The notes beneath the pieces were generated by a model, which searched no databases, was not told the origin of the DNA, and was given only the letters and a program-made list of their open reading frames with translations. Below, piece by piece: positions 5,857 through 42,004 of a stretch of DNA of 50,335 bases (position 1 is the stretch's first letter; each line of letters starts with the position of its first letter). The position numbers were made by a program, and so were the translations under genes. This DNA comes from a virus: positions 1 through 50,335 of IMG/VR virus record IMGVR_UViG_3300009537_000021; one strand, written 5' to 3'.

Positions 5857-5874
5857 GATGCTACACTCTTAGCC

Positions 5875-7614: not shown

Positions 7615-7624
7615 GGAAGGAAGA

Positions 7625-7795
7625 ATGCCACTAGCCAAGAAATCAAAAAAGGCCAAAGGTAATCAAGGTGCCCAGTGGGGTAACACTGGTTCTGAGGGCA
7701 ATATCCACAATGTTGGATCAGACAAAGCCCCGGTTTCTCCGAGCCCAGCCAAGAACAACAAGCACGGCAGAAACGTCTCAATCGGTCGTAAGTGA
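7625..7795 (+). CDS. Small basic protein, 56 aa (MPLAKKSKKAKGNQG...)
   Basis: ATG 7625 preceded by AAGGAAGGAAG. The longer track ORF (7412..) overlaps the portal gene and is unlikely. Confidence 0.4.
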   Translation: MPLAKKSKKAKGNQGAQWGNTGSEGNIHNVGSDKAPVSPSPAKNNKHGRNVSIGRK

Positions 7796-8313
7796 CCTCA
7801 AGGGATAATCGAGGTGGGGCTAGGGTCCCAGACGGGCAGCAGAGGCCAGCCTCTCTGCCGTTTGCTCGTGGGTCCAATCGTTCTGATTTGGCCGAACTCC
7901 CTGGGACACCCGGTACCCCTCTTCCCCCTAGCCCAGCAGAACCCTCACTAAGCCATGGTGATGCTGGGAGACTTCGGCAGATGCTTGGGGGTATTCCCCT
8001 AGATCAAGTGTCCCCTGGAGCTACTCTGGGCGAAGGTACACAAAGGCCTGATGAGCCCATCACTGCCGGGGTTGATGTAGGTGCAGGTCCGGGAGCTAAT
8101 GGGCTTCTACCTTCACCTAACCAGCTAACAGAGGAGCTCACGGCCCAAGAACTCAAGACCATCTACCCTCTCCTCATGAGGCTTGCTACTCTTCCTAATG
8201 CCACTACAGAGAGCAAGATTCTGGCACAAAGGATCAGGTCTCGCCTACCCGTGGCACCAGAACAAATGCCAGACTTAGGACAAACTAATGGGCCTCAAAG
8301 AACAACTGGATAA
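7792..8313 (+). CDS. Hypothetical Pro/Gly-rich protein, 173 aa
   Basis: GTGA coupling to the upstream ORF; low-complexity N-half, helical C-end. Confidence 0.5.
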   Translation: MTSRDNRGGARVPDGQQRPASLPFARGSNRSDLAELPGTPGTPLPPSPAEPSLSHGDAGRLRQMLGGIPLDQVSPGATLGEGTQRPDEPITAGVDVGAGPGANGLLPSPNQLTEELTAQELKTIYPLLMRLATLPNATTESKILAQRIRSRLPVAPEQMPDLGQTNGPQRTTG

Positions 8314-23209: not shown

Positions 23210-23497
23210 ATGAGTGAGATGACCGTAACCCAACACAACGAACAACTAATCCTACAAAAGCAACACCTTCTTAGGCAGATGGAACAAGAGCGAAATAGTA
23301 TGGGCATTATTCTGGCCGCTATGATGAGGCAGATGAAGCGCAAGAGGGCTGTGGTTCTTCCGCCCGAGCTCCTTACGGTTCCTGGTGTTCAGGTTGATTA
23401 CCTAGAGGACGGTAGTGTTCGTGTAGACTTCATAAAGCCGAACCCTAACGGACATAAGGATCTAGTAGATGACCAATCTACCGAGCCCATTACCTGA
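23210..23497 (+). CDS. Hypothetical protein, 95 aa
   Basis: ORF track; helical N-half. Confidence 0.5.
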   Translation: MSEMTVTQHNEQLILQKQHLLRQMEQERNSMGIILAAMMRQMKRKRAVVLPPELLTVPGVQVDYLEDGSVRVDFIKPNPNGHKDLVDDQSTEPIT

Positions 23498-25370
23498 GGA
23501 TTTAACCAAAGCGGTTGGCTTAGCTTCTGCCGATGAGGTGGGGGCTGTTTGGGATTTAGGTATAGATGATCTTGGGTACATGCTTTCCACTCTGGATCAA
23601 GAGTCACCCTTTGAGTACCGTAGCTATGAAGTCCAATCGATCCCGCCCCTGAAGAACCAGATTGATGACCAACGAGAGCCGGGAGAGCAGACCCTATCAG
23701 CATGGTGGGCCCGAGCCCAGCACACCTGGCATGAGGGTGCGGGGCAAGATGTTTTCGATGGGGCCACTTCAACTCGATACAGATTCCAAGCCTCGAAGGG
23801 GATGGACCCCTGGACAGAAGGTCAACTGACCTTACTGAAAGAAACGGCTGAGCTCCGCAACGATGCTGTGGATGACCATCACCTGCTTTCCACCGATGTG
23901 GCTCTGATCTATACCTATGGCGGCAACATCAAGAAAGATCCAGACCCTGATGCAGGTGCAGAAGGTGGCGAGGCTACGGTCACTACCCACAATGGTACTC
24001 CCATCAACTCTATAACCTCCGATGGCACCGTTGTGTATGCAGCTTTCTCAGGCGGGTCTCTAGGTATCAAGTCAATGGACATAACAGCCTTTAGCTCTTG
24101 GTCCAATGTTAATGACCACGATGATGTGGACGTGATTGCCTTTGTTAAAGGTAGACTCATGGGGGCTAAGGCTAATCAGGTTTTTGAGTATGACCTAGCC
24201 GCAGGTACAGCTATCCCTGAACCGTTCTATACAGACATATCCACAGGGTTCACGTTCTCTGCCATAACAGAATCAGGGCCAGCTATCTACTTCTCTGGGA
24301 ATGCCGGAGACAGAGCGGAGATATTCGCTGCGAGACTAACTGCACAGGACATACCGTATGCGTCAGTGGCAACTGTAGGCGCCATGCGAAGCGTTTGGCA
24401 AGCCCCTGAAGGGGAGACGATATACGCAATCAAGGGGTACATCGGCCAACAAATCCTGATAGGTACCTCAAGGGGAGTTCGTATTGGGGCAATAGTCACG
24501 GATGAAGGAGACTTAAGTGTGTCGGCTCTCATCGTAGAGACCGACTACCCCGTCCGTAACTTTGAACCACAGCAAGAGTTTGCTTGGTTTACCTGGTCCA
24601 ACTACGACGCCTCAAGTTCAGGGCTCGGCAGAATTCACCTAGGAGATTTGGTATATGCCAGTGATCTTATGTGGGATACACCTTCCACCATCATGGAGTG
24701 TGTCCAGTATCTAGGACGTATGTATTTCGTGGCTGATGAGGGTGCTACTAGCCGCATCATTAAGGAGCACGCTGATAACCTCGTAGCCACTGCCACCCTA
24801 GATATTGGTGACATTCGATACGGTACCACTGAACGAAAGACCATTAGGTACTTCGACATTCTCACCGCAGACTATGGGAAGTGGTCCTTGCATATGTCGG
24901 TGAACGGGGCCGCCGTTGCTCCCTTCACTACGGATAACCCTGTGGGTGGGTATCAAGAGGAAGTCATTGATCTTGAAGGCACGAGGTTCTCCACTCGCAT
25001 CACCTTGAAACGTGATGATATAGATGCCACGTTAGGACCTCGTTTGTTTGAGTGGCGATTGCGAGCGGAGGCTCGTACCACAGGAAGATTTAGATATCTG
25101 GTACCCGTGATGGTGTACGACTTCATGACTAACCAGACAGGTAGAGAGGTAGGGTATGTAGGTCTAGCACTGGACTTGCTTAACCATCTCAAAGCCATAT
25201 ACAATACAGATACCGACATAAACTTCGCCGCACTGGAATCAGGAGTCCCTGGTGCTGGGCTGGTCTTCACTGTTAAGATGGAAGATATGAGGTTTAAGTC
25301 ATTTGCCCCACCCAAAGGCGGTAGGGGGTTTGGCGGTATTGCTCTGGTAGTTTTGAGAGAGGTACGGTAG
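23469..25370 (+). CDS. Tail structural protein (nozzle/hub-like), 633 aa
   Basis: Large beta-rich ORF at the end of the virion module. The assignment rests on position only. Confidence 0.5.
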   Translation: MTNLPSPLPEDLTKAVGLASADEVGAVWDLGIDDLGYMLSTLDQESPFEYRSYEVQSIPPLKNQIDDQREPGEQTLSAWWARAQHTWHEGAGQDVFDGATSTRYRFQASKGMDPWTEGQLTLLKETAELRNDAVDDHHLLSTDVALIYTYGGNIKKDPDPDAGAEGGEATVTTHNGTPINSITSDGTVVYAAFSGGSLGIKSMDITAFSSWSNVNDHDDVDVIAFVKGRLMGAKANQVFEYDLAAGTAIPEPFYTDISTGFTFSAITESGPAIYFSGNAGDRAEIFAARLTAQDIPYASVATVGAMRSVWQAPEGETIYAIKGYIGQQILIGTSRGVRIGAIVTDEGDLSVSALIVETDYPVRNFEPQQEFAWFTWSNYDASSSGLGRIHLGDLVYASDLMWDTPSTIMECVQYLGRMYFVADEGATSRIIKEHADNLVATATLDIGDIRYGTTERKTIRYFDILTADYGKWSLHMSVNGAAVAPFTTDNPVGGYQEEVIDLEGTRFSTRITLKRDDIDATLGPRLFEWRLRAEARTTGRFRYLVPVMVYDFMTNQTGREVGYVGLALDLLNHLKAIYNTDTDINFAALESGVPGAGLVFTVKMEDMRFKSFAPPKGGRGFGGIALVVLREVR

Positions 25371-27156: not shown

Positions 27157-27687
27157 CTATAGCTCATCCTCATCGAGGTCGATTTCATCATCGTCCTCTT
27201 CCTCATCTTCAAGGTCGTCATCTTCTTCCTCGACCTCATCTTCATCATCCATCTGGGATGGGTTGAAGACGTCCACAATCTCGGAGCGAATTTTACCTTC
27301 GTTGTCCTCGCCATCTGCTACTTCGATGGCAACAGAACGACCAACCAACTTGTCAAGAGGTATCTTGACCATGCGGTCAGGAATCTTGACAATGGGGTCA
27401 ATTGCTTGCAAGAAGCCTCGGAAGGACCACAGAGAGTTCTCGGCTGTTTCACCATCTTTGGTGATTAGGACATTGTTGTACCAGAACCTGGCACCCTTGC
27501 CCTTGCCTGCGTCGGTCACTTCCACGACCCACTCAACTCCTCGAGAACCAGTCCCGAACTTCTTGCCTGAAGCACTTACAATTTTGGCATTGTATGAGCC
27601 CTCAGGGATAACGGTCTTGCGCCGACGCTCGCTGGCAGATACACCAGTCAGGTCAACTTCGACCGCACTCTTTGTTACTTTTGCCAC
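27157..27687 (-). CDS. DUF669-like ssDNA-binding protein with acidic C-tail, 176 aa
   Basis: Position next to the Sak4-like ATPase; VIPEGSYNAKIV pattern; 35-aa D/E tail ending DLDEDEL. Confidence 0.55.
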   Translation of the reverse strand: MAKVTKSAVEVDLTGVSASERRRKTVIPEGSYNAKIVSASGKKFGTGSRGVEWVVEVTDAGKGKGARFWYNNVLITKDGETAENSLWSFRGFLQAIDPIVKIPDRMVKIPLDKLVGRSVAIEVADGEDNEGKIRSEIVDVFNPSQMDDEDEVEEEDDDLEDEEEDDDEIDLDEDEL

Positions 27688-28526
27688 TACTTTACCTCCT
27701 TGGTGGCGTTGATTCTCCGTACTAATTTAGGTACGGTGACATTGTATGACCGAGAGGGGAAGGTCTTGGAACTATGAATGTCCTCTCTTACCCCTACAGG
27801 CCACTCGGCATGCTTGAATACCATGCCGTACTTCAATACTGTTTGGTCGATGTCTCCCGAGTCGTCCTCCTCTATGATGGTGCGGGCAATAATGCTCGGC
27901 TGTGCCAGAATTGTTGATCGAACGGATGGAGTTAGATCGGGCACGAAATCCGACCCCGCTTTTATTGCCTGCTCCTCGCCCAGTGATCGCTCCTGAGCGG
28001 TGTAGATGAGATGGAGACCTCGCTCTGAGCAGACGGATGCTAGATCCTCCATGTATTCATTCATCATGGAACCTACTCGACCCCATGTTCTTTGGTCTGT
28101 AGTCCCCTTCGGTCTGAACTCGTCACGGATTTCTTCATCCTTGTTAATGTGACGGACAGCCATACGCAGCAAGGCTGTGGTTGTATCTACGCCCACTGTC
28201 TTCCTGTCATGGTCTGCATACCTGAGGTAGTACAGAAAGTCGGCAGCGTGCTTCCATCTAGCGGTGACGTAGTGACCACGCTCATCCACAGGGAAGACTT
28301 GAACATCGGGGTAGTGCCTGATTGTCTCGGTGCCATCTTCGCAGGCGAACACAATAGGTTTGGGACCCGAACCGATGAGGGCTGTCTTGCCTGATTTCTG
28401 ACGACCCCATACCAGCATGTTCAGGTACCTCTGGATATCTGAAGCGGGTTTGATGAATGCCTCAATGCTGGCTAACTTCTGGATGCGTTTGGTGTTGGCT
28501 TTCATGGGCTTGTTAATTGTCGCCAC
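27687..28526 (-). CDS. AAA_24/Sak4-like RecA-fold ATPase, 279 aa
   Basis: Walker A VWGRQKSGKTALIG; a typical partner of DUF669 and Cas4-like nuclease genes. Confidence 0.7.
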   Translation of the reverse strand: MATINKPMKANTKRIQKLASIEAFIKPASDIQRYLNMLVWGRQKSGKTALIGSGPKPIVFACEDGTETIRHYPDVQVFPVDERGHYVTARWKHAADFLYYLRYADHDRKTVGVDTTTALLRMAVRHINKDEEIRDEFRPKGTTDQRTWGRVGSMMNEYMEDLASVCSERGLHLIYTAQERSLGEEQAIKAGSDFVPDLTPSVRSTILAQPSIIARTIIEEDDSGDIDQTVLKYGMVFKHAEWPVGVREDIHSSKTFPSRSYNVTVPKLVRRINATKEVK

Positions 28527-29535
28527 GTCCTAGCCCCCTTCCTCTTACATAGTCACTAGGCTGGTACTTACTTCTCCTCATGAACTTGCTGTCCTGACCC
28601 ATGAGTTCTAGTAGGCACAAGTCGTGGTAGTCACAGTCCCATCCACAAGAGGGGATCATGGTTCTGACCCAAGGGTCTACGTCCCCCTCCTCGTGGAGCT
28701 CGTGCCAGTTTTCTATCTCCTGAGCTGTGATGCCGAACTCAATAACCTGTCGGTCGATGAGTGCCTGGTCCTTGATGATCTTGGACCGCTTGAAGTAATT
28801 GTTTTGTAGGCGTAGGTTCTTGAGTCTCTCCCGCCAATCATCAGGCAGATTTCTCACGGCTGACACATCGTAATACTCCAAGAGGAACTTAGCCATCGTT
28901 GGGTAGTCGGTGTCGATTCGCCTCTTACTTATCGAACCATCCTTGTTAATGCTGGGCAAGGTGGGTGACTTGCGCCGTATGTAGTTGAAGATAAAGCCTT
29001 TGATGTCTAAGTCCATACCCTCACGGAGAGCCCAAGGATATAGCGTGGACTGTAGGTCCTCTAATCGCCACTCCCCAGAGGGTATGGACTTAACGGTCTT
29101 GTGATCTACCACCCATATGTCTCGGGCGGGGGTCGAGTTGTCCCTGACAATCAGGTCAGGTATGAAGGTGAACTGATCCCCCTCCTCGAACTCCACATTG
29201 AACTGCTCCTCAACGTACAGAACCTCCCAGTCTGCTTCCTCTTTGCGATAGTGCCAGAGGTATGCTTCCATCATGCGCTCAGCCATGCCCGCTAAGTCAC
29301 CGTAAAACTCTCGCTCTTCCAGGAACAGGTTGTTGAATTTCTTTACCTGTCTAGCCTGTGCCTTTCGCCAGTCTTCCCCGTTATAGTGGGCGGCCATCAA
29401 CTCATGGAACCAAGAGCCCAGCTTTAACTTCTCGTCTGGTAGTCGGGGCTCCAGTTTCTCTACGATGGAGTAGAAATACTGGCGTTTGCACCTGCGGAAT
29501 TTCTTGACCGCAGAGTGGGAAATCTTTAGTGGCAC
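28513..29535 (-). CDS. PD-(D/E)XK exonuclease, Cas4/AddB-like with Fe-S cysteines, 340 aa
   Basis: IPDLIV ... VVDHKTVK nuclease core; one N-terminal Cys (RRCKRQY) plus C-terminal CGWDCDYHDLC. Confidence 0.75.
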   Translation of the reverse strand: MPLKISHSAVKKFRRCKRQYFYSIVEKLEPRLPDEKLKLGSWFHELMAAHYNGEDWRKAQARQVKKFNNLFLEEREFYGDLAGMAERMMEAYLWHYRKEEADWEVLYVEEQFNVEFEEGDQFTFIPDLIVRDNSTPARDIWVVDHKTVKSIPSGEWRLEDLQSTLYPWALREGMDLDIKGFIFNYIRRKSPTLPSINKDGSISKRRIDTDYPTMAKFLLEYYDVSAVRNLPDDWRERLKNLRLQNNYFKRSKIIKDQALIDRQVIEFGITAQEIENWHELHEEGDVDPWVRTMIPSCGWDCDYHDLCLLELMGQDSKFMRRSKYQPSDYVRGRGLGRGDN

Positions 29536-29588: not shown

Positions 29589-32072
29589 TCAAACCTCGAC
29601 AGAATCTTCGGACCAGTGGTCACCTACCTTTACATCGGCTACGATAGGCACGGTCAATATGCAATCAAAGAGCCGTTCCAGTGGTACGTTCTCCATGGTG
29701 TCTCTTATAACCGGCACCCATTTATCAACCTTGTCCTCCCGTATCTCAAACAAGATGGAGTCATGAACGGTGGAGATTAACTTTGCCTCAGTTTCAGGGA
29801 GCCGCTTCTCCAGTTGTATCATGGCGAGGAGCATCATATCTGATGCCAGACTCTGGACAGGACTGTTGATGGCCTGCCTCTCTGCTTCGGCCCTGATCCC
29901 CTCATTAGTGCTGTGGATATCATGAAGCCTGCGCTTCCGCCCGATGGATGACATCACATAGCCATTCTTCTTGGCCTTGTTTCTCTGACGGTTATGCCAG
30001 CCCTGTAACGAGCGGAATGTCTGGAAAAACTCTTTGCGGTATTTCTGTGCCTCTGCATCGGTGACGTCCAGTTCGTAGTTCTCCTTGGCGTACTCGGTGA
30101 AGTGTTTCCAGCCCATACCATAGAGGAAGCCGAAGTTCACAGCCTTAGCTTGCTTGCGTTCCTCTGCGGTTATCTCTTCCTCAGGCTTACCCAGCACAGA
30201 CATGGCGGTCTCCATGTGGACATCACGACCTGTGTTGAAGATCCTAAGCAGGGTACTGTCCTGTGAGTAGTGAGCGGCCAGTCTCATCTCTGCCTGTGAG
30301 TAGTCAGCCTCGACTATCTTCCAGCCCGGTACCCCACCGATGATGCCACGGATAAAGACGTTACGGGGCACCTGTTGGAGGTTTGGGTTCTCGGAAGACA
30401 GACGCCCCGTAACAGTATGGTATGGTTTAAAGTGGGTATGCAGCCGTCCACCTGAGTCAGCGAGACTAGGCCAAGGTGTTAGATAACGGCTGCTATACCC
30501 ACGCCATTGACGATAGGCTAGAATGTCATCTAATATGCCTGTATCGTCTAAGGTTTTAAGACGGATGAGAACACCCTCTCTGGTGCTAGGTTTCCCGGTG
30601 GCGGTTCTCTCTACCACAGGAAGACCAAGTCTGTCAAACAGAATATTGGCAAGTTGCTGAGTGGATCCGATGTTGAATTCCCAGCCTGCTTTTTCCCAGA
30701 CCTGTTCCTGAAACTTTGTGGCTCTCTGCTCACACTCAACTACTCGTTCCTCAAGCCTAGGCATATCTAATGGCACGCCTCGGAGCTCCATCTCAGTTAA
30801 GGTAACGTCTGCGGGGTGAAGCAATCGCTTGTAGAGCCGATGACTAAGCGGGTCAGCCTTTAAGATTCGTTCGGTGAGGGCTTTGAGTCTGAAGGTGTAG
30901 TCAGAATCCATGCCCCCGTACTCAGCCAGAGTTTGTAGATCGGCATTGTATATGTCGGTCTTGTCTACCATCTCTTTGTACTCAGGTGCACCCAGGTGTA
31001 CCATCGCTAGGTACCCTAGACTCTTGAGGTTGTTCTCGTCCTGAGCATATGTGGCACCCATAGTGTCATAGCTGTGGCGAACATGAATCCCGATCATTTC
31101 AAGGCACTTGGAGTCATACTTACCGTTGTGCATGATCCATCGAGGAACTTCTTCCATGTATGGCTTGATGATATCCCTGACCTGAGTCCAGTCTTTCCAC
31201 CTTGCTTGGCTGTGGTCAAGAGCTAGGACATACGAGTAGCCCGGACGGAATGAGAGGTTGATCGTGCTGACCTTGAAGTCATCTGCCCACCAGGCAAGAC
31301 CACCACCCTTGAATCTACCAACCTTAGGATGACTCGACCATGTCTCGACGTCCACAGAGACTAACTGTGGTTCCTTCCGGAACTCGTCTAGTAGCTGGCT
31401 TAGAGACTCCTTATCATTGACTAAGGTGGTGCTGGTCTCTGGAATTCCTTCTTCATTCCTCAGCAACCTGCTGAAGATTAGCAGGGCTTGATGGAAGGGT
31501 TGCTTGTATCGGGGGTTCCTTAGTACCGCAGCGGGATGGAAGGCGAACACCCACTTGGTGCCGTACTTCTCCTCAATCGTACCATTAAGGGCGGTTATTC
31601 CTTTTCGCCCGAGGATCGCTTGACAGCCTCCATTGCCCAAGACAAGACCGAATTGGGGTCGGATAGCTTCGATTTCTCTGGATAGGTATGTACCTGAGCA
31701 GGTTCTGATTTCGGCAGCAGTTGGGGTTCGGTTATCGTCGGGTCGGCACTTGACACCGTTGGTGACAAAAAACCAATCCCGCTTGAGGCCCACTTCTTCA
31801 AGAGTTTGGTCGAGTAACTTTCCTGCACGCCCTGAGAATAGTCTGCCTGTGGTTTCCTCATTATAACCTGGGGCCTCACCTATGATGAACGGACGTATCT
31901 GGGATCCCGATACTCTCAGACCTTTGGTCGGGCTGTTGACTGGGATGCAGACTCGTTCCGTCTCCTGATGCAGCTTGCACTTCTGGCATGAAGGGTCCGT
32001 AAGGGCCTGTAATTCTGATGCCAGCTTGTGCAAGTTCACCGATGCCTCTGGCGTCTCGGTAGTCATGCTCAT
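29589..32072 (-). CDS. polA: Family A DNA polymerase with 3'-5' exonuclease, fused to an N-terminal family-4 uracil-DNA glycosylase domain, 827 aa
   Basis: UDG: CQKC, GEAPG, CRP-x13-C, HPAAVLR. Exo: VDVETWS, HNGKYD, YGGMDSD. Pol: EADYSQAEMRLAAH, RKQAKAVNFGFLYGMG, VHDS. SD GAGGAGGTG upstream of ATG 32072. Confidence 0.9.
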   Translation of the reverse strand: MSMTTETPEASVNLHKLASELQALTDPSCQKCKLHQETERVCIPVNSPTKGLRVSGSQIRPFIIGEAPGYNEETTGRLFSGRAGKLLDQTLEEVGLKRDWFFVTNGVKCRPDDNRTPTAAEIRTCSGTYLSREIEAIRPQFGLVLGNGGCQAILGRKGITALNGTIEEKYGTKWVFAFHPAAVLRNPRYKQPFHQALLIFSRLLRNEEGIPETSTTLVNDKESLSQLLDEFRKEPQLVSVDVETWSSHPKVGRFKGGGLAWWADDFKVSTINLSFRPGYSYVLALDHSQARWKDWTQVRDIIKPYMEEVPRWIMHNGKYDSKCLEMIGIHVRHSYDTMGATYAQDENNLKSLGYLAMVHLGAPEYKEMVDKTDIYNADLQTLAEYGGMDSDYTFRLKALTERILKADPLSHRLYKRLLHPADVTLTEMELRGVPLDMPRLEERVVECEQRATKFQEQVWEKAGWEFNIGSTQQLANILFDRLGLPVVERTATGKPSTREGVLIRLKTLDDTGILDDILAYRQWRGYSSRYLTPWPSLADSGGRLHTHFKPYHTVTGRLSSENPNLQQVPRNVFIRGIIGGVPGWKIVEADYSQAEMRLAAHYSQDSTLLRIFNTGRDVHMETAMSVLGKPEEEITAEERKQAKAVNFGFLYGMGWKHFTEYAKENYELDVTDAEAQKYRKEFFQTFRSLQGWHNRQRNKAKKNGYVMSSIGRKRRLHDIHSTNEGIRAEAERQAINSPVQSLASDMMLLAMIQLEKRLPETEAKLISTVHDSILFEIREDKVDKWVPVIRDTMENVPLERLFDCILTVPIVADVKVGDHWSEDSVEV

Positions 32073-32400
32073 AAATCACCTCCTCAATCCCGGCATTAAT
32101 AACGAGCCGGGCGCAGGTCAAGCATGGGGAGTGAGTCAGGTAGAGCGAAGCCCCGTCTGTGGACACTCCGTGCTTGGCTGCAAAAGCTATGGTGTTTGCC
32201 TCGGCGTGAACTGCCCGCTCGCAAGGGCGATCATCGTCAGGCTGATGGAAACAGTGAGGCATGCCACTGGCAGCCCCGTTGTAACCTACCGAGATAATTC
32301 TCCTGGCATATACCAACACGGCCCCAACTTGTAGCCTCTCACAGGTGCTTGACTCGGCAACTACTTGAGCTATACGGATAAACTGTTGGTCAGAAAGCAC
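31876..32400 (-). CDS. dCMP deaminase (cytidine/deoxycytidylate deaminase fold), 174 aa
   Basis: HAEANTI and PCLTCARLV zinc motifs; GTG start. The C-terminal 65 codons overlap the polymerase gene. Confidence 0.85.
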   Translation of the reverse strand: MLSDQQFIRIAQVVAESSTCERLQVGAVLVYARRIISVGYNGAASGMPHCFHQPDDDRPCERAVHAEANTIAFAAKHGVSTDGASLYLTHSPCLTCARLVINAGIEEVIYEHDYRDARGIGELAQAGIRITGPYGPFMPEVQAASGDGTSLHPSQQPDQRSESIGIPDTSVHHR

Positions 32401-33199
32401 TAGACAACCTCCTATTCATTTCGGTCTTGTATTCCCTCTCCAATCGGCCTTGCTCATCGGCAAACACATGAAGGTTGGCAATGTGCATGTGAAGGGTGCT
32501 AGGTATATAAGGCTCTGCATCTAGGTATTGGTCATTCATCTTATCCACTACCCACTGAAGCAAACGACCCGCCATGAACACATCGTCGGCTAGGTACCTA
32601 AAGAAGTCACAGGATCGCATGAAGTAGGTCATTGATACCCGGTTGCCTGTAATCACCTGAAAGTGGTAACCAAGAGTGCATGGCACTCGCTGACCTCTCT
32701 CTGCGGCAGCTAAATCCTCTGGAAACCAGATCGGCAAATAAGCCTGACGAGTCATAGGTCTATCTCTTAGGAGTTGAACCAGATCATTCAAGTCACCGTA
32801 TTCAAACCTAATACCCCATCTAGGTATATCGGAATCGTCTACAGCGGGCCAGAATCTCTCCATGTAGGTATGACTGAAAGTACCGACCTCTTTGTGCTCC
32901 TCGACACCTTGCTCGTACCACGGCCAGTTCTTGTACTGTTCGCCGGGGTTCAGAGGCTTGCCACCCACCCTCTCTTGGAAATGATCCTCAGCCCACGGGA
33001 GATTGGGGTCGATCATCTCGGCCCAACCTTCTCTACTCTCAGGTACAGGCACAGAGAAGTTGGAGTTGTGGATTTCCGTGACCCTGACTTGTGGTCTGTT
33101 GTTCAAGGATTGCCATTCACCCCTGTCTAGTGTGGTGCTCTCATTCAAGAGGGCAAACCTCATTTGTTGCAGAACACCTGAAAAAGGCTCAAGGGGCAT
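32390..33199 (-). CDS. Thymidylate-synthase-superfamily pyrimidine C5-transferase, dCMP-hydroxymethylase-like, 269 aa
   Basis: TRQAYLPIWFPEDL...VPCTLGYHFQV...FMRSCDFFRYLADDVF...HMHIANLHVF aligns with the ThyA / T4 gp42 core blocks; AGGAGAAGCGT-ATG start. Confidence 0.75.
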   Translation of the reverse strand: MPLEPFSGVLQQMRFALLNESTTLDRGEWQSLNNRPQVRVTEIHNSNFSVPVPESREGWAEMIDPNLPWAEDHFQERVGGKPLNPGEQYKNWPWYEQGVEEHKEVGTFSHTYMERFWPAVDDSDIPRWGIRFEYGDLNDLVQLLRDRPMTRQAYLPIWFPEDLAAAERGQRVPCTLGYHFQVITGNRVSMTYFMRSCDFFRYLADDVFMAGRLLQWVVDKMNDQYLDAEPYIPSTLHMHIANLHVFADEQGRLEREYKTEMNRRLSSAF

Positions 33200-34037
33200 A
33201 CGCTTCTCCTAGTTTCTCGAAGGTCAATTCACTGGTGTGTACAGAGGGGACGAGAATGCCATTCTGATACTCCTCATACCTCTTACGGATACGACGGAAG
33301 GGGCCATAGATTTCTTCGGCTACTGTCTTGCCTGACTCCTCGAATTCCAGCACCTTCCACCACCAACGTGAGATGGACTTCCATGTGGGGTAGGTCTCTG
33401 CATATTCCTCTAACTTATCTCGGTCAGAGAGTACCTTCATTAGATCAGGCTGGGTATACAGGTAGGGCAAACACTTGAAGGAATGGAGCTGGGTAACGTC
33501 AAGATGCCACTGCACTCGTATGAGGCTCGGATCAGGGGAGATTTCTCTTGCCAGTACATGTACAAGCCCCATATCCATGCCAAGCATATATCCGTTGTAA
33601 GAGACCCTACTATGGATAGTAAGAGTGGGTCGGACACTAGAACTTGGTGAACCTCGAAACGTTGCTGCCATAAGACAGTTTCCCCATTTGTGGCGGCGGA
33701 GGTCACCTCTACGCTCAACCGGACGGAAAGGCATGTTCGTGATGACACCTTTACCTCCTTTGTTTTTATCCGTGAATATCTCACGGGCGTTCTGGACAAA
33801 TAGAGTCAAGTCCACAGGGTCTATGTACTCTCGGATTAGTCTAGTCCAACGAGCTTTATTAAGCCATAACTCCCGGAAATTGAAGTCATAGTCCGCTGAC
33901 TCCACTTCGAGGATGACGTTGTATAGATTGGTACCTATACCTAGGTAAAGGTCAACTTCCTCTTTGTAAAGGTGCCAACGGACTACGTCGTGCCAGAGTT
34001 GAGTGAGGTCGGGAGCTCTTAGTACCTTGAAAGTCAC
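33189..34037 (-). CDS. Hypothetical protein, 282 aa (faint TS-fold-like pattern)
   Basis: GTGA coupling to mazG. GNCLMAATF...IHSRVSYNGYMLGMDMGLVHVL weakly parallels the TS Cys and RS.D blocks, but the key residues are not conserved. Confidence 0.6.
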   Translation of the reverse strand: MTFKVLRAPDLTQLWHDVVRWHLYKEEVDLYLGIGTNLYNVILEVESADYDFNFRELWLNKARWTRLIREYIDPVDLTLFVQNAREIFTDKNKGGKGVITNMPFRPVERRGDLRRHKWGNCLMAATFRGSPSSSVRPTLTIHSRVSYNGYMLGMDMGLVHVLAREISPDPSLIRVQWHLDVTQLHSFKCLPYLYTQPDLMKVLSDRDKLEEYAETYPTWKSISRWWWKVLEFEESGKTVAEEIYGPFRRIRKRYEEYQNGILVPSVHTSELTFEKLGEAYAP

Positions 34038-34351
34038 CCGGTCTCCGGTTCTTTGTTCCAGTCACGTTTGCTTACCTCTTCCCATGCTCGGCTTACTTCC
34101 CAAGCTAGGTTGAAATCATTGGTATTGCAGTAACTGGCAAGGTAGATCACGATATCCCCAATTGCATCACCAGCCTTATCTTGGTACTCGTCATCAGTCA
34201 TACCACGAATACCTTGCTGGTGCTTTAGGTGGGCGTGCGCTAACTCACCCACTTCCTCCGCAAGCCCCAGCAAGGCATCGTGGGGCTGCTGATCTGGAAA
34301 ATTGTATGAGAGCCATCTTTTGTGGGCCCTCTGTAGTTCGGACAAAAGCAT
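34034..34351 (-). CDS. mazG: MazG-like all-alpha nucleoside triphosphate pyrophosphohydrolase, 105 aa
   Basis: GLAEEVGELAHAH and GDAIGDIVIYLASY metal-binding helices. Confidence 0.75.
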   Translation of the reverse strand: MLLSELQRAHKRWLSYNFPDQQPHDALLGLAEEVGELAHAHLKHQQGIRGMTDDEYQDKAGDAIGDIVIYLASYCNTNDFNLAWEVSRAWEEVSKRDWNKEPETG

Positions 34352-34647
34352 TAGTAATCCATGATCCTTTCATATACCACAAGATAACCGTGCATATCTA
34401 TAAGGTTGTCTTCCTTGTGACGAGTCAGTTCCCGACCCATCTTGAATAACACCATCATAAGAGCTACGTCCTCAGCGCCGATAGGTAAATCAAGGTAAGC
34501 AGACCAAAGCTGGGCTGTTTTCTCGGTAGAAGGACCATAGGCGTTATTTCTAGCCTCTGTGACCTTGATAGCCTGCTCTACGGCAGTGGGTTTTCGCTGA
34601 CTCATAAAGTGATTGTAATATACCCCAGCTTTCGAGCGCAACCTCAT
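34351..34647 (-). CDS. DUF6378-like phage protein, 98 aa
   Basis: The pattern YGPSTEKTAQLWSAYL...DVALMMVLFKMGRE...NLIDMHGY resembles this family as I remember it. Confidence 0.45.
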   Translation of the reverse strand: MRLRSKAGVYYNHFMSQRKPTAVEQAIKVTEARNNAYGPSTEKTAQLWSAYLDLPIGAEDVALMMVLFKMGRELTRHKEDNLIDMHGYLVVYERIMDY

Positions 34648-36125
34648 TTACCGAACAGGACGGCAGGGTTGTCCATCACCATTCGCTCGATGTCCTTCTT
34701 CTGTCTGAGGGCGTCCAGGATAAGAGAATCGACCGAGTTTCTGACCTGAAGGTGGTAGAAGGTGACGGGTCTGGATTGCCCGACTCGATCAAGTCTACCT
34801 CTAGCTTGGTTCCAGTGGATGAGGGAGTAATCCGTACTGTAAAAGATTCCGTATGAACAGGCGTGTTGTATGCCATCTAATGCCTCCGCTGCTGCAACTT
34901 GTATTACCAGGGCTTGTGAAGGTCGTTGAAACGCCTTAATTGCCGTTGCTCTTTGGCTGCTTGATACGCCTCCTCGTATTTGATGAGGTATATAGAACTT
35001 GGAAGCGGCGACGGATATCGCATCCATTTCCGCAAGAAACCGTGCAAATATAACCACGTTTTGACCCGCTGAGGCCAGATCCTCAAGTAGATCGGTAAGT
35101 ATTCGTATTTTCTCGGTCTGGAGCTCAACGACATCTCCTTGGTCGTCATGTACCCATCCTCCTGTCATTTGTTGTAGGCGTAGTAGTTTGGTAAGTGGTA
35201 TAGGGGCTTCAATCATGTGGCGCTTATGAACCACCACCCCATCTTTGGCAAATATGTCATAGACCCGGCGAGCGGTGCGATTCAATTCCACAGGAACAAC
35301 AGTATCGGTGACTTTAGGCATATCGTGTATGTCCTCTTTGCGAGCCGACCTGATCTGTGGTGTATATCTCGCCTCAAGATCATCGAGGTTCAAGTAACCT
35401 TTCAACTCGTACCCTGTGCGTCCTCCCCATATGGCATAATTGCCCTTGAACTCAGTCCACGACATATTTCCCGTCCTAGTCCAGTTAGCTTTCCATACTC
35501 GAGGATCTAAGGCTTTCAACTGGGAGTATATGTCTAGGTGATTCTTCCCGATAGGGGTGCCAGTGAGTAGTAGGACGTAAGAGGAGCGCCCACAGATGTA
35601 GTGGGATGCCTTACTTTGCTTGGCTGTAGCGTTCTTAACGTGGTGGGACTCGTCTAGGATCACAATCTCTGGATTGAACTCCTCGATAGCCTTCATGATG
35701 TCCCACTTTTTGTCCCGCTTTATGACGGCCGAGTAGTTGAGAATCAGGATGGTTAGCTCGGAATCCCCAGGGGTCCATGATCGTATCTGTTCTGCCTTAT
35801 TTGCAATCGTTCCACTAGGGATGAGAACTGTGTAGGTGATGTCGGGGTGTACATGAATATCGGCCTGAGCATCCCACACCTGGATTGCGTTAATTGGGCA
35901 GAGTACGAGAACACGCCTTTGTTGGCGGTGCAGAAAGAGAGTGGATATGAAGTCATAGCCAGCTTTAGTCTTCCCTGTGCCGGGGTCCCAGAATAGTGCA
36001 CCACCTTTATCTCCTATATCTAAGCCGTCGTTGTCGGTCTTCCTCCACAGCCATACTAACCCCTTGCGTTGGTGTGCAAATGGCTTTACTGCTGGCTTGT
36101 ACTTCACCCTTCTCGGCTCTTCCAA
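34644..36125 (-). CDS. SNF2-family DEAD/H helicase, 493 aa
   Basis: GTGKT, ILDESHHVKN (DExH), and C-terminal helicase block RGRLDRVGQ. Starts at TTG, or at a GTG 18 nt downstream. Confidence 0.85.
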   Translation of the reverse strand: MEEPRRVKYKPAVKPFAHQRKGLVWLWRKTDNDGLDIGDKGGALFWDPGTGKTKAGYDFISTLFLHRQQRRVLVLCPINAIQVWDAQADIHVHPDITYTVLIPSGTIANKAEQIRSWTPGDSELTILILNYSAVIKRDKKWDIMKAIEEFNPEIVILDESHHVKNATAKQSKASHYICGRSSYVLLLTGTPIGKNHLDIYSQLKALDPRVWKANWTRTGNMSWTEFKGNYAIWGGRTGYELKGYLNLDDLEARYTPQIRSARKEDIHDMPKVTDTVVPVELNRTARRVYDIFAKDGVVVHKRHMIEAPIPLTKLLRLQQMTGGWVHDDQGDVVELQTEKIRILTDLLEDLASAGQNVVIFARFLAEMDAISVAASKFYIPHQIRGGVSSSQRATAIKAFQRPSQALVIQVAAAEALDGIQHACSYGIFYSTDYSLIHWNQARGRLDRVGQSRPVTFYHLQVRNSVDSLILDALRQKKDIERMVMDNPAVLFGK

Positions 36126-36508
36126 GCATTGAGTACCTCATTAGACACTACCACTCGGATTGTGCCATCTTCACCCTCATAGAGTTGCCAAGGGTCAGGG
36201 TATCTCTTAGCTATGGCAACGATGTCCTGAGTACGCTGGTCTAGCTCATTGACATTGAGGGCCTGGGTATCACCGTTGATGTCACGGTACATTACCGTAG
36301 TGCGAGGAGAGGGGGGTGTCTCCGCACTAGAATCACCCTCCTCTACCACGCTATCCCATTCTAATGCTGCCTCATTTGTCTCGGACCTGACCCCTCTAAT
36401 TAGATCCTCATTATCTATCTGAGGTGTAGTCACGATGGCAAGTATCTGCTGGACCATTTTTCTAGTCCGTACTAGCTCTTCCATTATGGTTTCATATTGC
36501 GTTGGCAT
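36104..36508 (-). CDS. Hypothetical protein, 134 aa
   Basis: AGGAGA SD 7 nt upstream of the ATG; no family recognised. Confidence 0.55.
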   Translation of the reverse strand: MPTQYETIMEELVRTRKMVQQILAIVTTPQIDNEDLIRGVRSETNEAALEWDSVVEEGDSSAETPPSPRTTVMYRDINGDTQALNVNELDQRTQDIVAIAKRYPDPWQLYEGEDGTIRVVVSNEVLNAWKSREG

Positions 36509-36962
36509 TGCCGAATCTCCTTTTCAGGTGGTCTGGACTCCAGAGGATAGGGTTACACCTAGCCACATGAAAGTCCTTTTCTCTTGTGTGGCAGAACTCA
36601 CACCATCTCTGGTCTAGGTAAGGTACGAAGTGGAAGTCTCTGAAGGCTCGACAATAAGGGCACCACCAGTACCCGTTCTCGTTGGCCTGCAATAACTTCT
36701 CGTCCGATACCTTTGAGTAAGGTGGACCGTAACCCACTTGTCGGCTTACTACACCGACCTTGTGAGTATCACGGTATTTCTCCGAGAGGTCTGCTGCTGC
36801 TTGTTTTGCCTCAACATAGGAGAAGAACTTTTTGGACCTTCTCTGGTTGGTTTCGAGGTCTACTACTAAGACCTTCCAAGGCTCATGTGTAAGTGCGGTA
36901 AATGGGAGATTCGTTGGTTCCCCTGTCTCACCGTCGATTATTAGTGGGTCACTCCGTGGCAT
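36492..36962 (-). CDS. Zinc-finger protein, 156 aa
   Basis: WWCPYC...WCEFC (CxxC-x19-CxxC). Confidence 0.55.
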   Translation of the reverse strand: MPRSDPLIIDGETGEPTNLPFTALTHEPWKVLVVDLETNQRRSKKFFSYVEAKQAAADLSEKYRDTHKVGVVSRQVGYGPPYSKVSDEKLLQANENGYWWCPYCRAFRDFHFVPYLDQRWCEFCHTREKDFHVARCNPILWSPDHLKRRFGNANAI

Positions 36963-39825: not shown

Positions 39826-40563
39826 TCATACCATCTTGGGGTGCTTGGCGATAGCTCTCTCCAGTCTATCTACATCAGACGGAAAGTCTACGTCGTCGGT
39901 AAGGTCGTTAATCTCGACCCAGTGGTTCCCTGTCTTGACTCTCTTAGGATTGGTGATAACCCAGGGCAGATCGTCCATGCAGAAGTACCACTCCCAGGGG
40001 GTACAGCGGTTCCACTTACCTGTGAGGTAGTTCTGTGCCACACGGTTCATACAGCGTGACGCCTTAGCGAATGACGGTTGATGGATAGTTATGGCGAAAT
40101 ACTCAGCCCAAGGAGCTAGGCCAAAGGCGCTGTCCGTACTACGACCGAACACTGCCCAGCCCTTAGTCCTGTGGTCTCGTATCTTGTCTATTGCGGCACT
40201 CGAGAACCATACATCACCGAACACGACGGTAGTGGATGGGGGCTCAAAGAAGTCCGTACACTTAGCCAGCATATCTATGCCGCCATAAGCATTCTCACGC
40301 CTGGTGGGTGTTACTACCTCACAGTTCTCATCAGCCAGAGCGGCCACATAAGCTGCATCGCTCGAAAGGACCTTCACTGTCGAAAAGGATTGGAACTGCT
40401 GTATGGCCCTTCGGATCAGAGGTTCGCCCTGGATTTGTATGAAGTGGCGTCCCTTGTCCAGGTGCTGTTTCTTGCTGGCCCCGTCCGCTACGATCAGCGT
40501 GGTTCGTGACTCGGTCGATGATTGAGGTCGTGCTAATACCTCTGGTGTATGGAATGTAGACAA
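39826..40563 (-). CDS. MobA/LicC-like (GT-A fold) nucleotidyltransferase, 245 aa
   Basis: TLIVADGASKK...IQIQGEPLIRRAI, VVFGDVWF and C-terminal DDVDFPSDVDRLE patterns. TTG start with AGGAG 7 nt upstream. Confidence 0.65.
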   Translation of the reverse strand: MSTFHTPEVLARPQSSTESRTTLIVADGASKKQHLDKGRHFIQIQGEPLIRRAIQQFQSFSTVKVLSSDAAYVAALADENCEVVTPTRRENAYGGIDMLAKCTDFFEPPSTTVVFGDVWFSSAAIDKIRDHRTKGWAVFGRSTDSAFGLAPWAEYFAITIHQPSFAKASRCMNRVAQNYLTGKWNRCTPWEWYFCMDDLPWVITNPKRVKTGNHWVEINDLTDDVDFPSDVDRLERAIAKHPKMV

Positions 40564-40912
40564 GTGCGGTCTCCTGCTCTGCTAACTCGGTGTGTGTCAT
40601 TCCCAGCCGTGTTGTGACGTATGGCTTATCAGCCCAGTCAGATCCCACTGCCAGAATGTCTGGTCTCATGCTGCGTACAAGGTCTGGATGCAAGTAGTTG
40701 TCCGATCTGACCGCTACGGCAAAGTAGCCCATTAGTTCTACATGCCACATACGATCATCAACACCGAACACAGGCTTGCCTTTCACCCTCTCCACAAACT
40801 CATCATGGAGAACCCCGACAGTGATATCCTCAGTGATTCTGGCACATTTAGCCAGGAATGAGGCGTGACCTGCGTGCGGTACATCGAATGTGCCTATTGT
40901 TAATAGCCTCAT
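40331..40912 (-). CDS. TagD-type cytidylyltransferase (HxGH nucleotidyltransferase), 193 aa including a 58-aa out-of-frame tail
   Basis: GTFDVPHAGH, VGSDWADK and YTRGISTTSII align block-for-block with glycerol-3-phosphate cytidylyltransferase. ATGA coupling at 40912. Confidence 0.8.
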   Translation of the reverse strand: MRLLTIGTFDVPHAGHASFLAKCARITEDITVGVLHDEFVERVKGKPVFGVDDRMWHVELMGYFAVAVRSDNYLHPDLVRSMRPDILAVGSDWADKPYVTTRLGMTHTELAEQETALVYIPYTRGISTTSIIDRVTNHADRSGRGQQETAPGQGTPLHTNPGRTSDPKGHTAVPILFDSEGPFERCSLCGRSG

Positions 40913-41136
40913 CCGAGTTTCCTGTCTGAGACCATTCTCCCTATCTCTCGACCAACCCAATTCACGGCTCGGTCATACCGGGTGAACATCTTAGCCTCAT
41001 CCCAGTCTTCACCGATGATAGATGCCTCTATGCGTGTGTCAGGATGGCGGGTAAGTGTAGCTATCACTCCCCCTGTGGGGCCATCTAGCTTGTAGCTGGT
41101 GATTGTTTTGTACGGATCCAATGTGCGTTCTGGCAT
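40909..41136 (-). CDS. Hypothetical protein, 75 aa
   Basis: ORF track; coupled at both ends. Confidence 0.5.
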   Translation of the reverse strand: MPERTLDPYKTITSYKLDGPTGGVIATLTRHPDTRIEASIIGEDWDEAKMFTRYDRAVNWVGREIGRMVSDRKLG

Positions 41137-41396: not shown

Positions 41397-41577
41397 CGGT
41401 TGTCTCCCGCAACACCGCCAACAGGGTTCGAGCGCCGTACATCTCGCCAGGTTGTAGGTGGGCGGGGGCGTGTTCGGTGAGGGTGTCCAACACCGCATCC
41501 AAGACCAGCTTGGCCTGCACTTGGTCGTCGCCTACCCACGGCAGCATTGCTTCGATGCACTTATCACGAAGTCTCAT
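41389..41577 (-). CDS. Hypothetical protein, 62 aa
   Basis: ORF track; in the operon chain. Confidence 0.45.
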   Translation of the reverse strand: MRLRDKCIEAMLPWVGDDQVQAKLVLDAVLDTLTEHAPAHLQPGEMYGARTLLAVLRETTDE

Positions 41578-42004
41578 CGGTAGCCTCCCTGCTTCTGCCT
41601 TTCAATTTGCGTATGTACCTGCGAATGGCTTTAGGCAAATGCCCTGCCCATATCCCATCAATAGGCTCGATACCAATGGCATATGTTAAGCACTCCAGAC
41701 GCACGGTACATTCTCCGCAAATTCTTTTAACGTCCTCTGGCACACGGGTAGGCTGTCTAGAGCCAGGTGGGTTCACTGGGAACCAGGTCTCTACGGTGTA
41801 GACAGCCGGGTATGCCTTCATTAACGCCACACAGGATGCGTCGTCTCTCCACTCGCCTCGGCGGTATGCAGGATCATCGCATATCCTATGGTACTCCTGG
41901 AATGTAAGACGGCGTTCTGGAATTACTGCTGGTGACACGGGTTTTTTGCTCCTTTCCTTTGTGTCTATGCGGGAGAGCGGTACCGGACGTGCACCCAGGG
42001 TCAC
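41564..42004 (-). CDS. whiB: WhiB-like Fe-S transcription factor, 146 aa
   Basis: Four Cys in the WhiB arrangement (ASC...ICGECTVRLEC = C-Xn-C-X2-C-X5-C), followed by the GIWAG turn and a basic tail. Confidence 0.8.
   Translation of the reverse strand: MTLGARPVPLSRIDTKERSKKPVSPAVIPERRLTFQEYHRICDDPAYRRGEWRDDASCVALMKAYPAVYTVETWFPVNPPGSRQPTRVPEDVKRICGECTVRLECLTYAIGIEPIDGIWAGHLPKAIRRYIRKLKGRSREATDETS

Follow-up and report, generated by a model that had tools for sequence, protein, structure and literature searches.

Cytosine modification in phage DNA has been linked to enzymes of the thymidylate synthase (TS) superfamily. In the MetaGPA study of metaviromes, the TS domain was the family most strongly tied to cytosine-modified DNA, together with PRA-PH (MazG-like) and dCMP deaminase domains, and positions 177 and 147 (numbering of Escherichia coli ThyA) best separated the TS homologues on C-modified contigs from those on unmodified contigs (PMC8670742). 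For deaminases at most 3 kb from the TS gene, the figures are 70% on C-modified and 6% on unmodified contigs, and the top neighbouring domains on modified contigs include PRA-PH and PolA (bioRxiv 10.1101/2024.12.05.627091). For 85% of the TS near those deaminases, 5hmdC or 5mdC was predicted as the product from the active-site residues, and production of 5-methyl-dCMP was validated for several. Phage deaminases beside an Asp177-type TS can prefer 5mC/5hmC, and formation of dTTP from 5mdCTP has been proposed in Xp12 (both bioRxiv 10.1101/2024.12.05.627091). We describe here a gene cassette of this kind in IMGVR_UViG_3300009537_000021, a complete Joint Genome Institute (JGI) metagenome contig of 50,335 bp; ‘the window’ denotes this whole stretch. 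The system belongs to a known kind, as its logic has already been described for metaviromes and Xp12. In this respect the original prediction, an earlier reading of the same DNA from its letters alone, is weakened.

The cassette consists of five overlapping genes on the minus strand at 31876-34647, next to the gene for the phage DNA polymerase. We interpret it as a pre-replicative pyrimidine-nucleotide cassette coupled to this polymerase, with a cytosine-directed TS-superfamily enzyme as its core, and assign this reading a probability of about 0.5. The most interesting new element is the product of the adjacent gene, a cryptic partner for which a TS fold is predicted. In the literature searched, there is no description of the tail-less clade formed by the TS-like enzyme, of its cryptic partner, or of their occurrence in actinophages including Muddy. 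The genes of the cassette and the polymerase gene are as follows.

31876..32400, minus strand: dCMP deaminase (PF00383, E=1.1e-22; phrog_174, E=5.4e-51; sequence motifs)
32390..33199, minus strand: TS-like protein, 269 aa (PF00303, E=2.2e-6; phrog_160, E=3e-30; AlphaFold2 (AF2) fold)
33189..34037, minus strand: putative TS-fold partner, 282 aa (AF2 model and Foldseek; without a Pfam family)
34034..34351, minus strand: MazG/DCTPP1-like NTP pyrophosphohydrolase, 105 aa (phrog_715, PDB matches, motifs)
34351..34647, minus strand: DUF6378 protein, function unassigned (DUF6378, E=5.8e-16)
29589..32072, minus strand: family A DNA polymerase fused to a uracil-DNA glycosylase (UDG) (PF00476, E=4.9e-106; PF03167, E=2.9e-27)

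All five open reading frames (ORFs) were found where the original prediction had placed them. Neighbouring ORFs overlap by 11, 11, 4, 1 and 4 nt, and AGGAG or AGGAGG is located 7-8 nt ahead of the start codons of the TS-like, deaminase and PolA genes. The overlaps together with these Shine-Dalgarno sites are compatible with translational coupling. Thus, the observation that led to the original prediction is confirmed, and its interpretation is partly supported, as detailed below.

The 269-aa TS-like protein matches PF00303 with 27.5 bits (cutoff 24.3), but only residues 133-245 are covered. Its AF2 model has a pLDDT of 86. Foldseek searches against PDB gave 396 matches with E<=1e-3, and all 50 listed matches are TS, MilA or the phage dCMP hydroxylase entries 9iqu/9iqc. 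Assignment to the TS superfamily is thus upheld by the Pfam score, phrog_160 and the fold. The best PDB match by sequence is not a TS but MilA, a CMP hydroxymethylase (E=4e-4), and the second is the dCMP-methylating N229D mutant of the Lactobacillus casei enzyme, which ranks ahead of wild-type TS. The best TM-scores are likewise those of MilA (0.65/0.56) and the HY126 dCMP hydroxylase. Scores against the two NCBIfam ThyA equivalogs are far below the cutoffs (20.7 versus 327 bits and 31.6 versus 174.55 bits).

The residues of the TS-like protein were aligned to the sequences of E. coli ThyA, T4 gp42 and the Xp12 dCMP methylase taken from annotated records. The catalytic Cys is retained (C174, codon 32678-32680, corresponding to ThyA C146), as are R195, S196 and D198 (ThyA R166, S167 and D169). 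T175 takes the place of ThyA H147, where T4 gp42 also has Thr, and D206 (codon 32582-32584) takes the place of ThyA N177, where both the T4 and the Xp12 enzyme have Asp. Further equivalent positions are H244 (ThyA H207), F246 (Y209) and Y112 (Y94). The original prediction had reached the Cys, Thr and Asp correspondences by eye and had stated that gp42 carries the same two substitutions; the alignment bears out both. C174, R195, S196, D198, Y112, H244, D205 and D206 are invariant in 43 homologues. The combination of Asp177 with Thr/Ser147, Cys146, R166/S167/D169, H207 and Y94 recurs in these homologues and in eight cassette enzymes whose phages have hosts in two phyla. Position 177 is known from mutagenesis to switch the preference between dUMP and dCMP in both directions (PMC13326640; PMC8670742; PMC6400193). 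In addition, the protein ends 25 residues after the position of H207, as compared with 30 in the T4 dCMP hydroxymethylase (dCH), 57 in ThyA and 63 in the Xp12 methylase. It therefore lacks the C-terminal tail which seals the active site of ThyA for hydride transfer (PMC6400193).

The enzyme thus departs from ThyA in Asp206 and Thr175 (for N177 and H147), in the missing tail and in scores below the cutoff. We regard it as a distinct R143/T147/D177/F209 tail-less clade, which is predicted from sequence to be a dCMP-directed C5 transferase.

Further evidence comes from related cassettes in which a true thymidylate synthase is encoded between the TS-like gene and the deaminase gene. In Microbacterium phage Triscuit this is a canonical ThyA of full length (gp67; 410 bits), which has the same residue as E. 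coli ThyA at 15/15 diagnostic positions, including Asn177 and His147. In the siphovirus MW202777, the same slot is occupied by a ThyX. Because a true ThyA or ThyX is present in the same cassette in two lineages, the TS-like protein is very unlikely to be a dTMP synthase. Two unrelated true thymidylate synthases beside it are hard to reconcile with the TS-like protein, or the pair of TS-like protein and deaminase, as the source of dTMP. TS-like protein, true TS and deaminase mirror the T4 arrangement of gp42, td and cd. Together with the active-site signature and the MilA match, the coexisting ThyA and ThyX support the view, already taken in the original prediction, of a cytosine-directed transferase rather than a thymidylate synthase. 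The TS-like enzyme is thus probably dCMP-directed and not a dTMP synthase. In Triscuit (5557-8634, plus strand), three TS-fold genes are found within ~3 kb, namely the partner gp64 (342 aa), the TS-like gp66 (Asp177) and the ThyA gp67; gp66 and gp67 are both annotated as ‘thymidylate synthase’.

Among the described systems, the T4 gp42 pathway resembles the locus in Asp177, Thr147, the catalytic Cys and the R-S-x-D block, in a short C-terminus without the ThyA tail, and in an NTP pyrophosphatase and a dCMP deaminase encoded alongside. The T4 logic (gp56 dCTPase, gp42, gp1 kinase, cd, td) is completed in some relatives by a true TS and a dNMP kinase. However, similarity to gp42 is not detectable beyond the active-site half of the sequence, and the contig has Arg for Asp143, Phe for Tyr209 and Gln for Arg127. 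The acidic residue at position 143, which activates the substrate water in hydroxymethylases (PMC13326640; PMC6400193), is therefore missing from an enzyme that otherwise shares Asp177 and the tail-less end with the T4 type. The contig also differs in its extra TS-fold partner and in having neither a kinase nor a glucosyltransferase.

With Xp12 and the MetaGPA contigs, the locus shares an Asp177 TS homologue which directly adjoins a deaminase gene, with a MazG/PRA-PH pyrophosphatase and a family A polymerase nearby; such a neighbourhood has been published as the genomic signature of C-modified phage DNA. The Xp12 enzyme and the TS-like protein are ~28% identical over 130 aa. In contrast to our locus, Xp12 has a long ThyA-like C-terminal region and an adjacent gene for dihydrofolate reductase (DHFR). 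Neither DHFR nor a dNMP kinase, a glycosyltransferase or any other DNA-modifying enzyme was found in Pfam scans of ~30 ORFs, which covered the structural arm in part, or in a Walker-A scan. An Xp12-type methylase is disfavoured, since Asp177 is present but both the tail and, in the scanned ORFs, DHFR are lacking. No description of a partner gene was found for the Xp12/MetaGPA neighbourhoods.

MilA from the mildiomycin pathway of Streptomyces shares with the TS-like protein the A/P-C-T-L motif and an Asp where specificity is determined, but it is the longer protein with about 320 aa, carries Asp at position 143, and acts on a ribonucleotide in antibiotic biosynthesis, without a phage replication context. 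The 5-hydroxy-dCMP synthases (RB69 gp48, DLP3 gp80, HY126 AfhB) share the TS fold with the locus and act on dCMP, AfhB being the top PDB structural match of the 282-aa partner. They differ in D169N, the mark of these flavin-dependent enzymes (PMC13326640), which is found neither in the TS-like protein nor in the partner. A 5-hydroxy-dCMP synthase was therefore rejected for the TS-like protein, in which Asp198 is kept. Arabinosyl- or glycosyltransferases, as in these systems, are absent from the scanned ORFs.

The 282-aa partner does not match any Pfam family. It had been taken for an ORFan and was given no role in the original scheme, a view which has to be revised. By tblastn, 85 phage records with the partner were detected; each listed match adjoins the TS-like gene, and the partner gene lies directly upstream of it throughout. 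In a profile search, 278 representative clusters were found in the whole library, nearly all of them 260-350 aa long. Among close relatives, sequence conservation is higher for the partner (75-81% identity) than for the TS-like protein (~60%).

Its AF2 model has a pLDDT of 94 and a pTM of 0.91. All 50 listed Foldseek matches in PDB belong to the TS superfamily; the best is 9iqu (E=7.6e-6, TM 0.44/0.55), and the HY126 dCMP hydroxylase, MilA, many TS entries and T4 dCH are included. In BFVD, uncharacterised phage proteins come first (E=9e-10 for the protein encoded upstream of the TS-like gene of phage PMBT14, i.e. the PMBT14 partner), followed by TS and gp42 entries. Sequence profiles do not detect this relationship: hhalign against the TS-like family gave non-significant values (E=0.12 and 0.18), Pfam analysis of 81 diverse partner sequences gave nothing meaningful, and a PDB profile search with the partner gave no match. 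As sequence profiles are non-significant, the TS-fold assignment is based on the AF2 model and Foldseek, which identify the partner as a second, cryptic and highly divergent TS-fold protein.

Several residues of the partner point in the same direction. G119, C121 and R144 do not vary among the 81 sequences (20-40% identity), and for S143 and D155 conservation is at least 90%. In the model, C121 (codon 33675-33677) lies just before strand 122-128, R144 closes strand 138-147, and D155 (codon 33573-33575) is part of helix 151-166. The spacing from R144 to D155 is +11, as is that from R166 to N177 in ThyA, and the non-significant hhalign alignment (E=0.18) places the partner in the same Cys/Arg/Asp register. 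C121, R144 and D155 thus appear to match ThyA C146, R166 and N177 topologically. The position of ThyA D169 is occupied by Tyr147 here and by Glu in the Serbin and PMBT14 versions (YYRSTE...FLAD), so that the Asn of the flavin-dependent 5-hydroxy-dCMP synthases is lacking. Judged from the model, the partner looks catalytically competent and of the cytosine type, with an altered cofactor site.

An unannotated ORF of ~270 aa in MW202777.1 (~6118-6927, plus strand), directly upstream of the gene labelled ‘pyrimidine hmase’, can be linked to the partner family by a weak BLAST chain, by synteny and by the structural match obtained for its PMBT14 orthologue. In a small database, BLASTP gave E=7.6e-14 with the Serbin partner and E=4.9e-12 with that of PMBT14, and the motifs TPC and YYRTTE...FPAD are present; hhalign against the partner profile was not significant.

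The cassette recurs in a constant order in more than 10 independent contexts: a dNMP-kinase-like gene, a dUTPase_2/MazG/PRA-PH-like NTP pyrophosphatase, the partner, the TS-like gene, the deaminase, (UDG-)PolA, a PD-(D/E)XK nuclease and an AAA_24 ATPase. Carriers are Mycobacterium phages NoShow and Muddy, Streptomyces phage Zuko, Microbacterium phage Triscuit, Serratia phage Serbin, Pseudomonas phage PMBT14, the uncultured siphovirus MW202777 and several metagenomic contigs. Gordonia phages also have the cassette, and by tblastn the TS-like gene is found in 72 Gordonia phage records. In GenBank and SEA-PHAGES the label ‘thymidylate synthase’ is given to the TS-like protein and ‘hypothetical protein’ to the partner; the cassette as a whole has been interpreted as an operon for ‘thymine synthesis’. 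In Muddy, gp46 (‘thymidylate synthase’) has Asp at ThyA position 177, the ‘hypothetical protein’ gp45 (34731-35273, minus strand) is a dCMP deaminase (PF00383, E=2.5e-18), and gp47 (36046-36939, minus strand), also annotated as hypothetical, is encoded in the partner position.

The contig itself is a new phage. When the region was searched for nearly identical DNA in 50,697 phage records, no match was obtained, and relatives were found only by protein comparison. Its structural genes are on the plus strand and its replication genes on the minus strand. A WhiB protein is encoded at 41564-42004, as the original prediction had noted, and this fits an actinophage. The flanks of the replication module are also conserved.

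34644..36125, minus strand: SNF2-family helicase, the upstream flank of the cassette kept in the clade of the contig
28513-29535, minus strand: PD-(D/E)XK nuclease, conserved downstream flank of the replication module
27687-28526, minus strand: AAA_24 ATPase, conserved downstream flank of the replication module

The other cassette proteins were largely identified as had been predicted. The deaminase has the zinc motifs HAE (residue 65) and PCLTC (residue 92) in addition to its Pfam match. For the MazG-like protein, the Pfam score does not reach the cutoff (PF03819, 16.8 versus 22 bits); the assignment is supported by phrog_715 (1.7e-8), the all-alpha PDB NTP pyrophosphatases 2q5z/2q73 (6e-4; DCTPP1 0.1) and the metal-binding motifs EEVGE and DAIGD. 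In relatives, this position is taken by a dUTPase_2/PRA-PH/MazG-like enzyme. The DUF6378 assignment holds with a corrected start, JGI having placed it at an internal Met (84 aa), while the longest ORF has 98 aa. No PDB sequence match was found for this protein, and only 10 close homologues without fusions were detected. The PHROG label ‘phosphofructokinase’ is not credible for a protein of 84-98 aa. In the clade of the contig, DUF6378 occupies the slot where relatives carry a P-loop dNMP kinase similar to ‘thymidylate kinase’. The polymerase has a 3'-5' exonuclease domain and an N-terminal family-4-type UDG (GEAPG at residue 65, HPAA at residue 179, several Cys). The first ~65 codons of the polymerase ORF (197 nt) coincide with the 3' end of that of the deaminase, with a strong GAGGAGG site ahead of the start codon. 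The UDG-PolA fusion is also found in two relatives of the contig (L010 and L018).

From these data the following pathway may be proposed. The MazG-like enzyme would hydrolyse dCTP, and probably dUTP, to the monophosphate. Cys174 of the TS-like enzyme would then attack C6 of dCMP, with Asp206 reading and protonating N3/N4 (the residues indicate the class of substrate), and a one-carbon unit would be added at C5. A non-reductive product such as 5-hydroxymethyl-dCMP or a related dCMP substituted at C5 seems to us more likely than 5-methyl-dCMP, because the hydride-transfer tail is missing, Arg143 is polar and there is no DHFR in the scanned ORFs. Arg143 and the unaligned cofactor half weaken this choice. 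The partner would form one half of a heterodimer with the TS-like enzyme or catalyse a second step on the same nucleotide; that the two work together is suggested by their strict adjacency and by a conservation of the partner above that of the TS-like gene. The deaminase would convert part of the dC pool into dUMP for dTMP synthesis, carried out by a host enzyme here and by the ThyA or ThyX of the cassette in some relatives. The modified nucleotide would most likely be incorporated by the adjacent polymerase, following the T4/Xp12 logic. Whether the product ends up in virion DNA we judge at slightly below even odds, and complete, protective replacement as in T4 seems quite improbable. A bolder version, in which the two TS-fold proteins constitute a two-enzyme or heterodimeric system for an undescribed pyrimidine nucleotide, is rather unlikely. 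Here, the TS-like enzyme would install a hydroxymethyl or exocyclic methylene group on dCMP, and the partner (Tyr/Glu at position 169) would either activate C5/C6 once more and attach another substituent, or work with another cofactor.

A number of findings weigh against the proposed pathway. At ThyA position 143 the TS-like enzyme has an invariant Arg171, in contrast to Leu in ThyA itself, Asp/Glu in hydroxymethylases and Asn in the Xp12 enzyme; ThyA R127 and Y209 are replaced by Gln and Phe. Its N-terminal half is aligned by no TS profile, so that the counterpart of Glu58/Glu60, the catalytic residue which activates methylene-THF, cannot be placed with confidence (MAFFT puts Asn66 in this column, and the conserved E71 and E76 are in the adjoining helix). 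Because of the atypical residues and the unaligned half, its cofactor and product are uncertain. The substrate specificity of the MazG-like enzyme cannot be read from its sequence. A P-loop dNMP kinase, encoded by most other cassette carriers, is absent from the window and from its closest relative, so that of the T4-type set for dC replacement the MazG-like enzyme is present and the kinase is not; efficient incorporation of a modified base was found to need the cognate kinase (PMC13326640). Glycosyltransferases or DNA-decorating enzymes are likewise missing from the scanned ORFs. Finally, the literature searched contains no report of modified cytosine for mycobacteriophages, Gordonia phages, PMBT14, Serbin, GTE2 or Muddy.

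Restriction-site avoidance points the same way. Observed/expected ratios (O/E) were computed for 6-mer palindromes that contain C/G, the expected counts being taken from a maximal-order Markov model and random non-palindromic word sets serving as null. The value for the contig is 0.62 (z=-14.6). In calibration with three genomes on each side, phages with complete C replacement gave 0.95 (T4), 0.97 (RB69) and 0.87 (Xp12), while unmodified phages gave 0.54 (lambda), 0.53 (L5) and 0.46 (D29); the contig thus differs from both T4 and Xp12. Five other cassette carriers are intermediate (0.65-0.80). Of the testable palindromic sites, 12/46 are nearly absent, and CGCG occurs 8 times as compared with 66 expected (O/E 0.12). 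This is soft evidence that the lineage is under strong selection to lose C-containing Type II sites, which would be unexpected if every C were protected, although avoidance can be ancestral. Complete, restriction-blocking dC replacement is disfavoured by this similarity to unmodified phages, and site avoidance together with the missing kinase shows that replacement is incomplete or non-protective in the lineage of the contig. Accordingly, the proposal of a full T4-like hydroxymethylcytosine pathway in the original prediction holds for the signature and the neighbourhood of the TS-like enzyme. It does not hold for the missing kinase, DHFR and glycosyltransferase, for Arg143 or for the palindromes.

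A modification of T was considered as an explanation of the palindrome pattern and rejected, as the T-containing 6-mers TTCGAA, TGATCA and ATCGAT are nearly absent too. CAGCTG, GTCGAC and TTCGAA do not occur at all, TGATCA, ATCGAT and AGATCT occur once each (8-18 expected), and CpG is depleted (rho 0.71). The avoided sites suggest a host with several Type II systems, one of them specific for CGCG.

The same genes might serve only the supply of dTTP. The TS-like enzyme would make 5-methyl-dCMP (or 5-hydroxymethyl-dCMP), the deaminase would turn essentially all of it into dTMP (or hydroxymethyl-dUMP), and the virion DNA would be canonical. The nucleotide pool would thereby be shifted from C to T for a phage of 52% G+C (0.49-0.54 across the window), the host probably being a high-G+C actinobacterium. 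This G+C content, palindrome avoidance as in unmodified phages and the lack of a dNMP kinase to activate modified dCMP suit such a function, as do the reported preference of deaminases near an Asp177-type TS for 5mC/5hmC and the proposed origin of dTTP from 5mdCTP in Xp12. But ThyA and ThyX of Triscuit and MW202777 would then be redundant and the conserved partner would be left without a role. The missing tail and DHFR speak, in addition, against a reductive methyl product. We consider this explanation unlikely. Even less probable is an ordinary thymidylate operon, with the deaminase as the source of dUMP, the TS-like protein as a genuine but divergent dUMP-to-dTMP synthase, the MazG/dUTPase-like enzyme sanitising dUTP, and the partner as an unrelated accessory protein. 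The gene set is compatible with a dTMP pathway, database labels and the ‘thymine synthesis’ reading agree with it, and restriction-site avoidance fits unmodified DNA. An invariant Asp instead of Asn177 and Thr/Ser instead of His147, positions at which mutagenesis switches specificity, argue against it, as do the absent tail, equivalog scores far below the cutoffs and the coexistence of a true ThyA or ThyX in two lineages.

T4 dCH is part of a dNTP-synthesising complex. The partner might be a non-catalytic regulatory or scaffolding subunit of such a complex, or the pair might make a modified pyrimidine nucleotide not destined for DNA, such as an inhibitor or decoy directed against host nucleotide metabolism or against a nucleotide-depleting defence. 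The precedent of T4 dCH, the stronger conservation of the partner among close relatives (75-81% as against ~60% for the TS-like protein), the lack of a kinase and the lack of any sign of protective modification in the contig would all be in line with these functions. For the TS superfamily, however, a non-DNA or scaffolding function has no precedent, the invariant Cys and Arg and the near-invariant Asp of the partner suggest catalysis, and the tight linkage to the polymerase suggests a role in precursor synthesis. In our estimate there is little probability in its favour.

Outside the cassette, two nucleotidyltransferase-like ORFs overlap by ~230 nt: a CTP_transf_like protein (PF01467, E=1.7e-16; 40331-40960, minus strand) and a weak MobA/IspD-like NTP_transf_3 (39826-40563, minus strand). 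The pair is absent from the closest relative (L018), looks like an accessory insertion and might activate a sugar or alcohol phosphate. Two large ORFs on the plus strand, of 761 aa (46503-48788) and 633 aa (23469-25370), have no Pfam match, and a 1780-aa ORF in the structural arm (8288-13630, plus strand) may encode the tape measure protein.

If the TS-like enzyme is cytosine-directed, as the cassette reading implies, the label ‘thymidylate synthase’ would be functionally wrong on more than 100 deposited phage genomes, including Gordonia CT-type phages, Muddy, FF47, Zuko, Triscuit, Serbin and PMBT14. For genome mining, an Asp177 TS beside a deaminase should not by itself be read as a sign of fully protected DNA; direct analysis is required. 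Muddy, a therapeutic phage, may make a modified cytosine nucleotide; if so, this would bear on its host range, restriction evasion, Type IV sensitivity, innate immune sensing and genome engineering. The partner family (~278 clusters without a Pfam model) represents an uncharacterised branch of a much-studied fold. It is a concrete place to look for new pyrimidine chemistry, and it might also provide tools for the sequencing of modified bases. If the two-enzyme reading is true, dozens of sequenced actinophages, Muddy among them, as well as Serratia and Pseudomonas phages would, under the labels ‘thymidylate synthase’ and ‘hypothetical protein’, hold an unrecognised DNA base or nucleotide metabolite.

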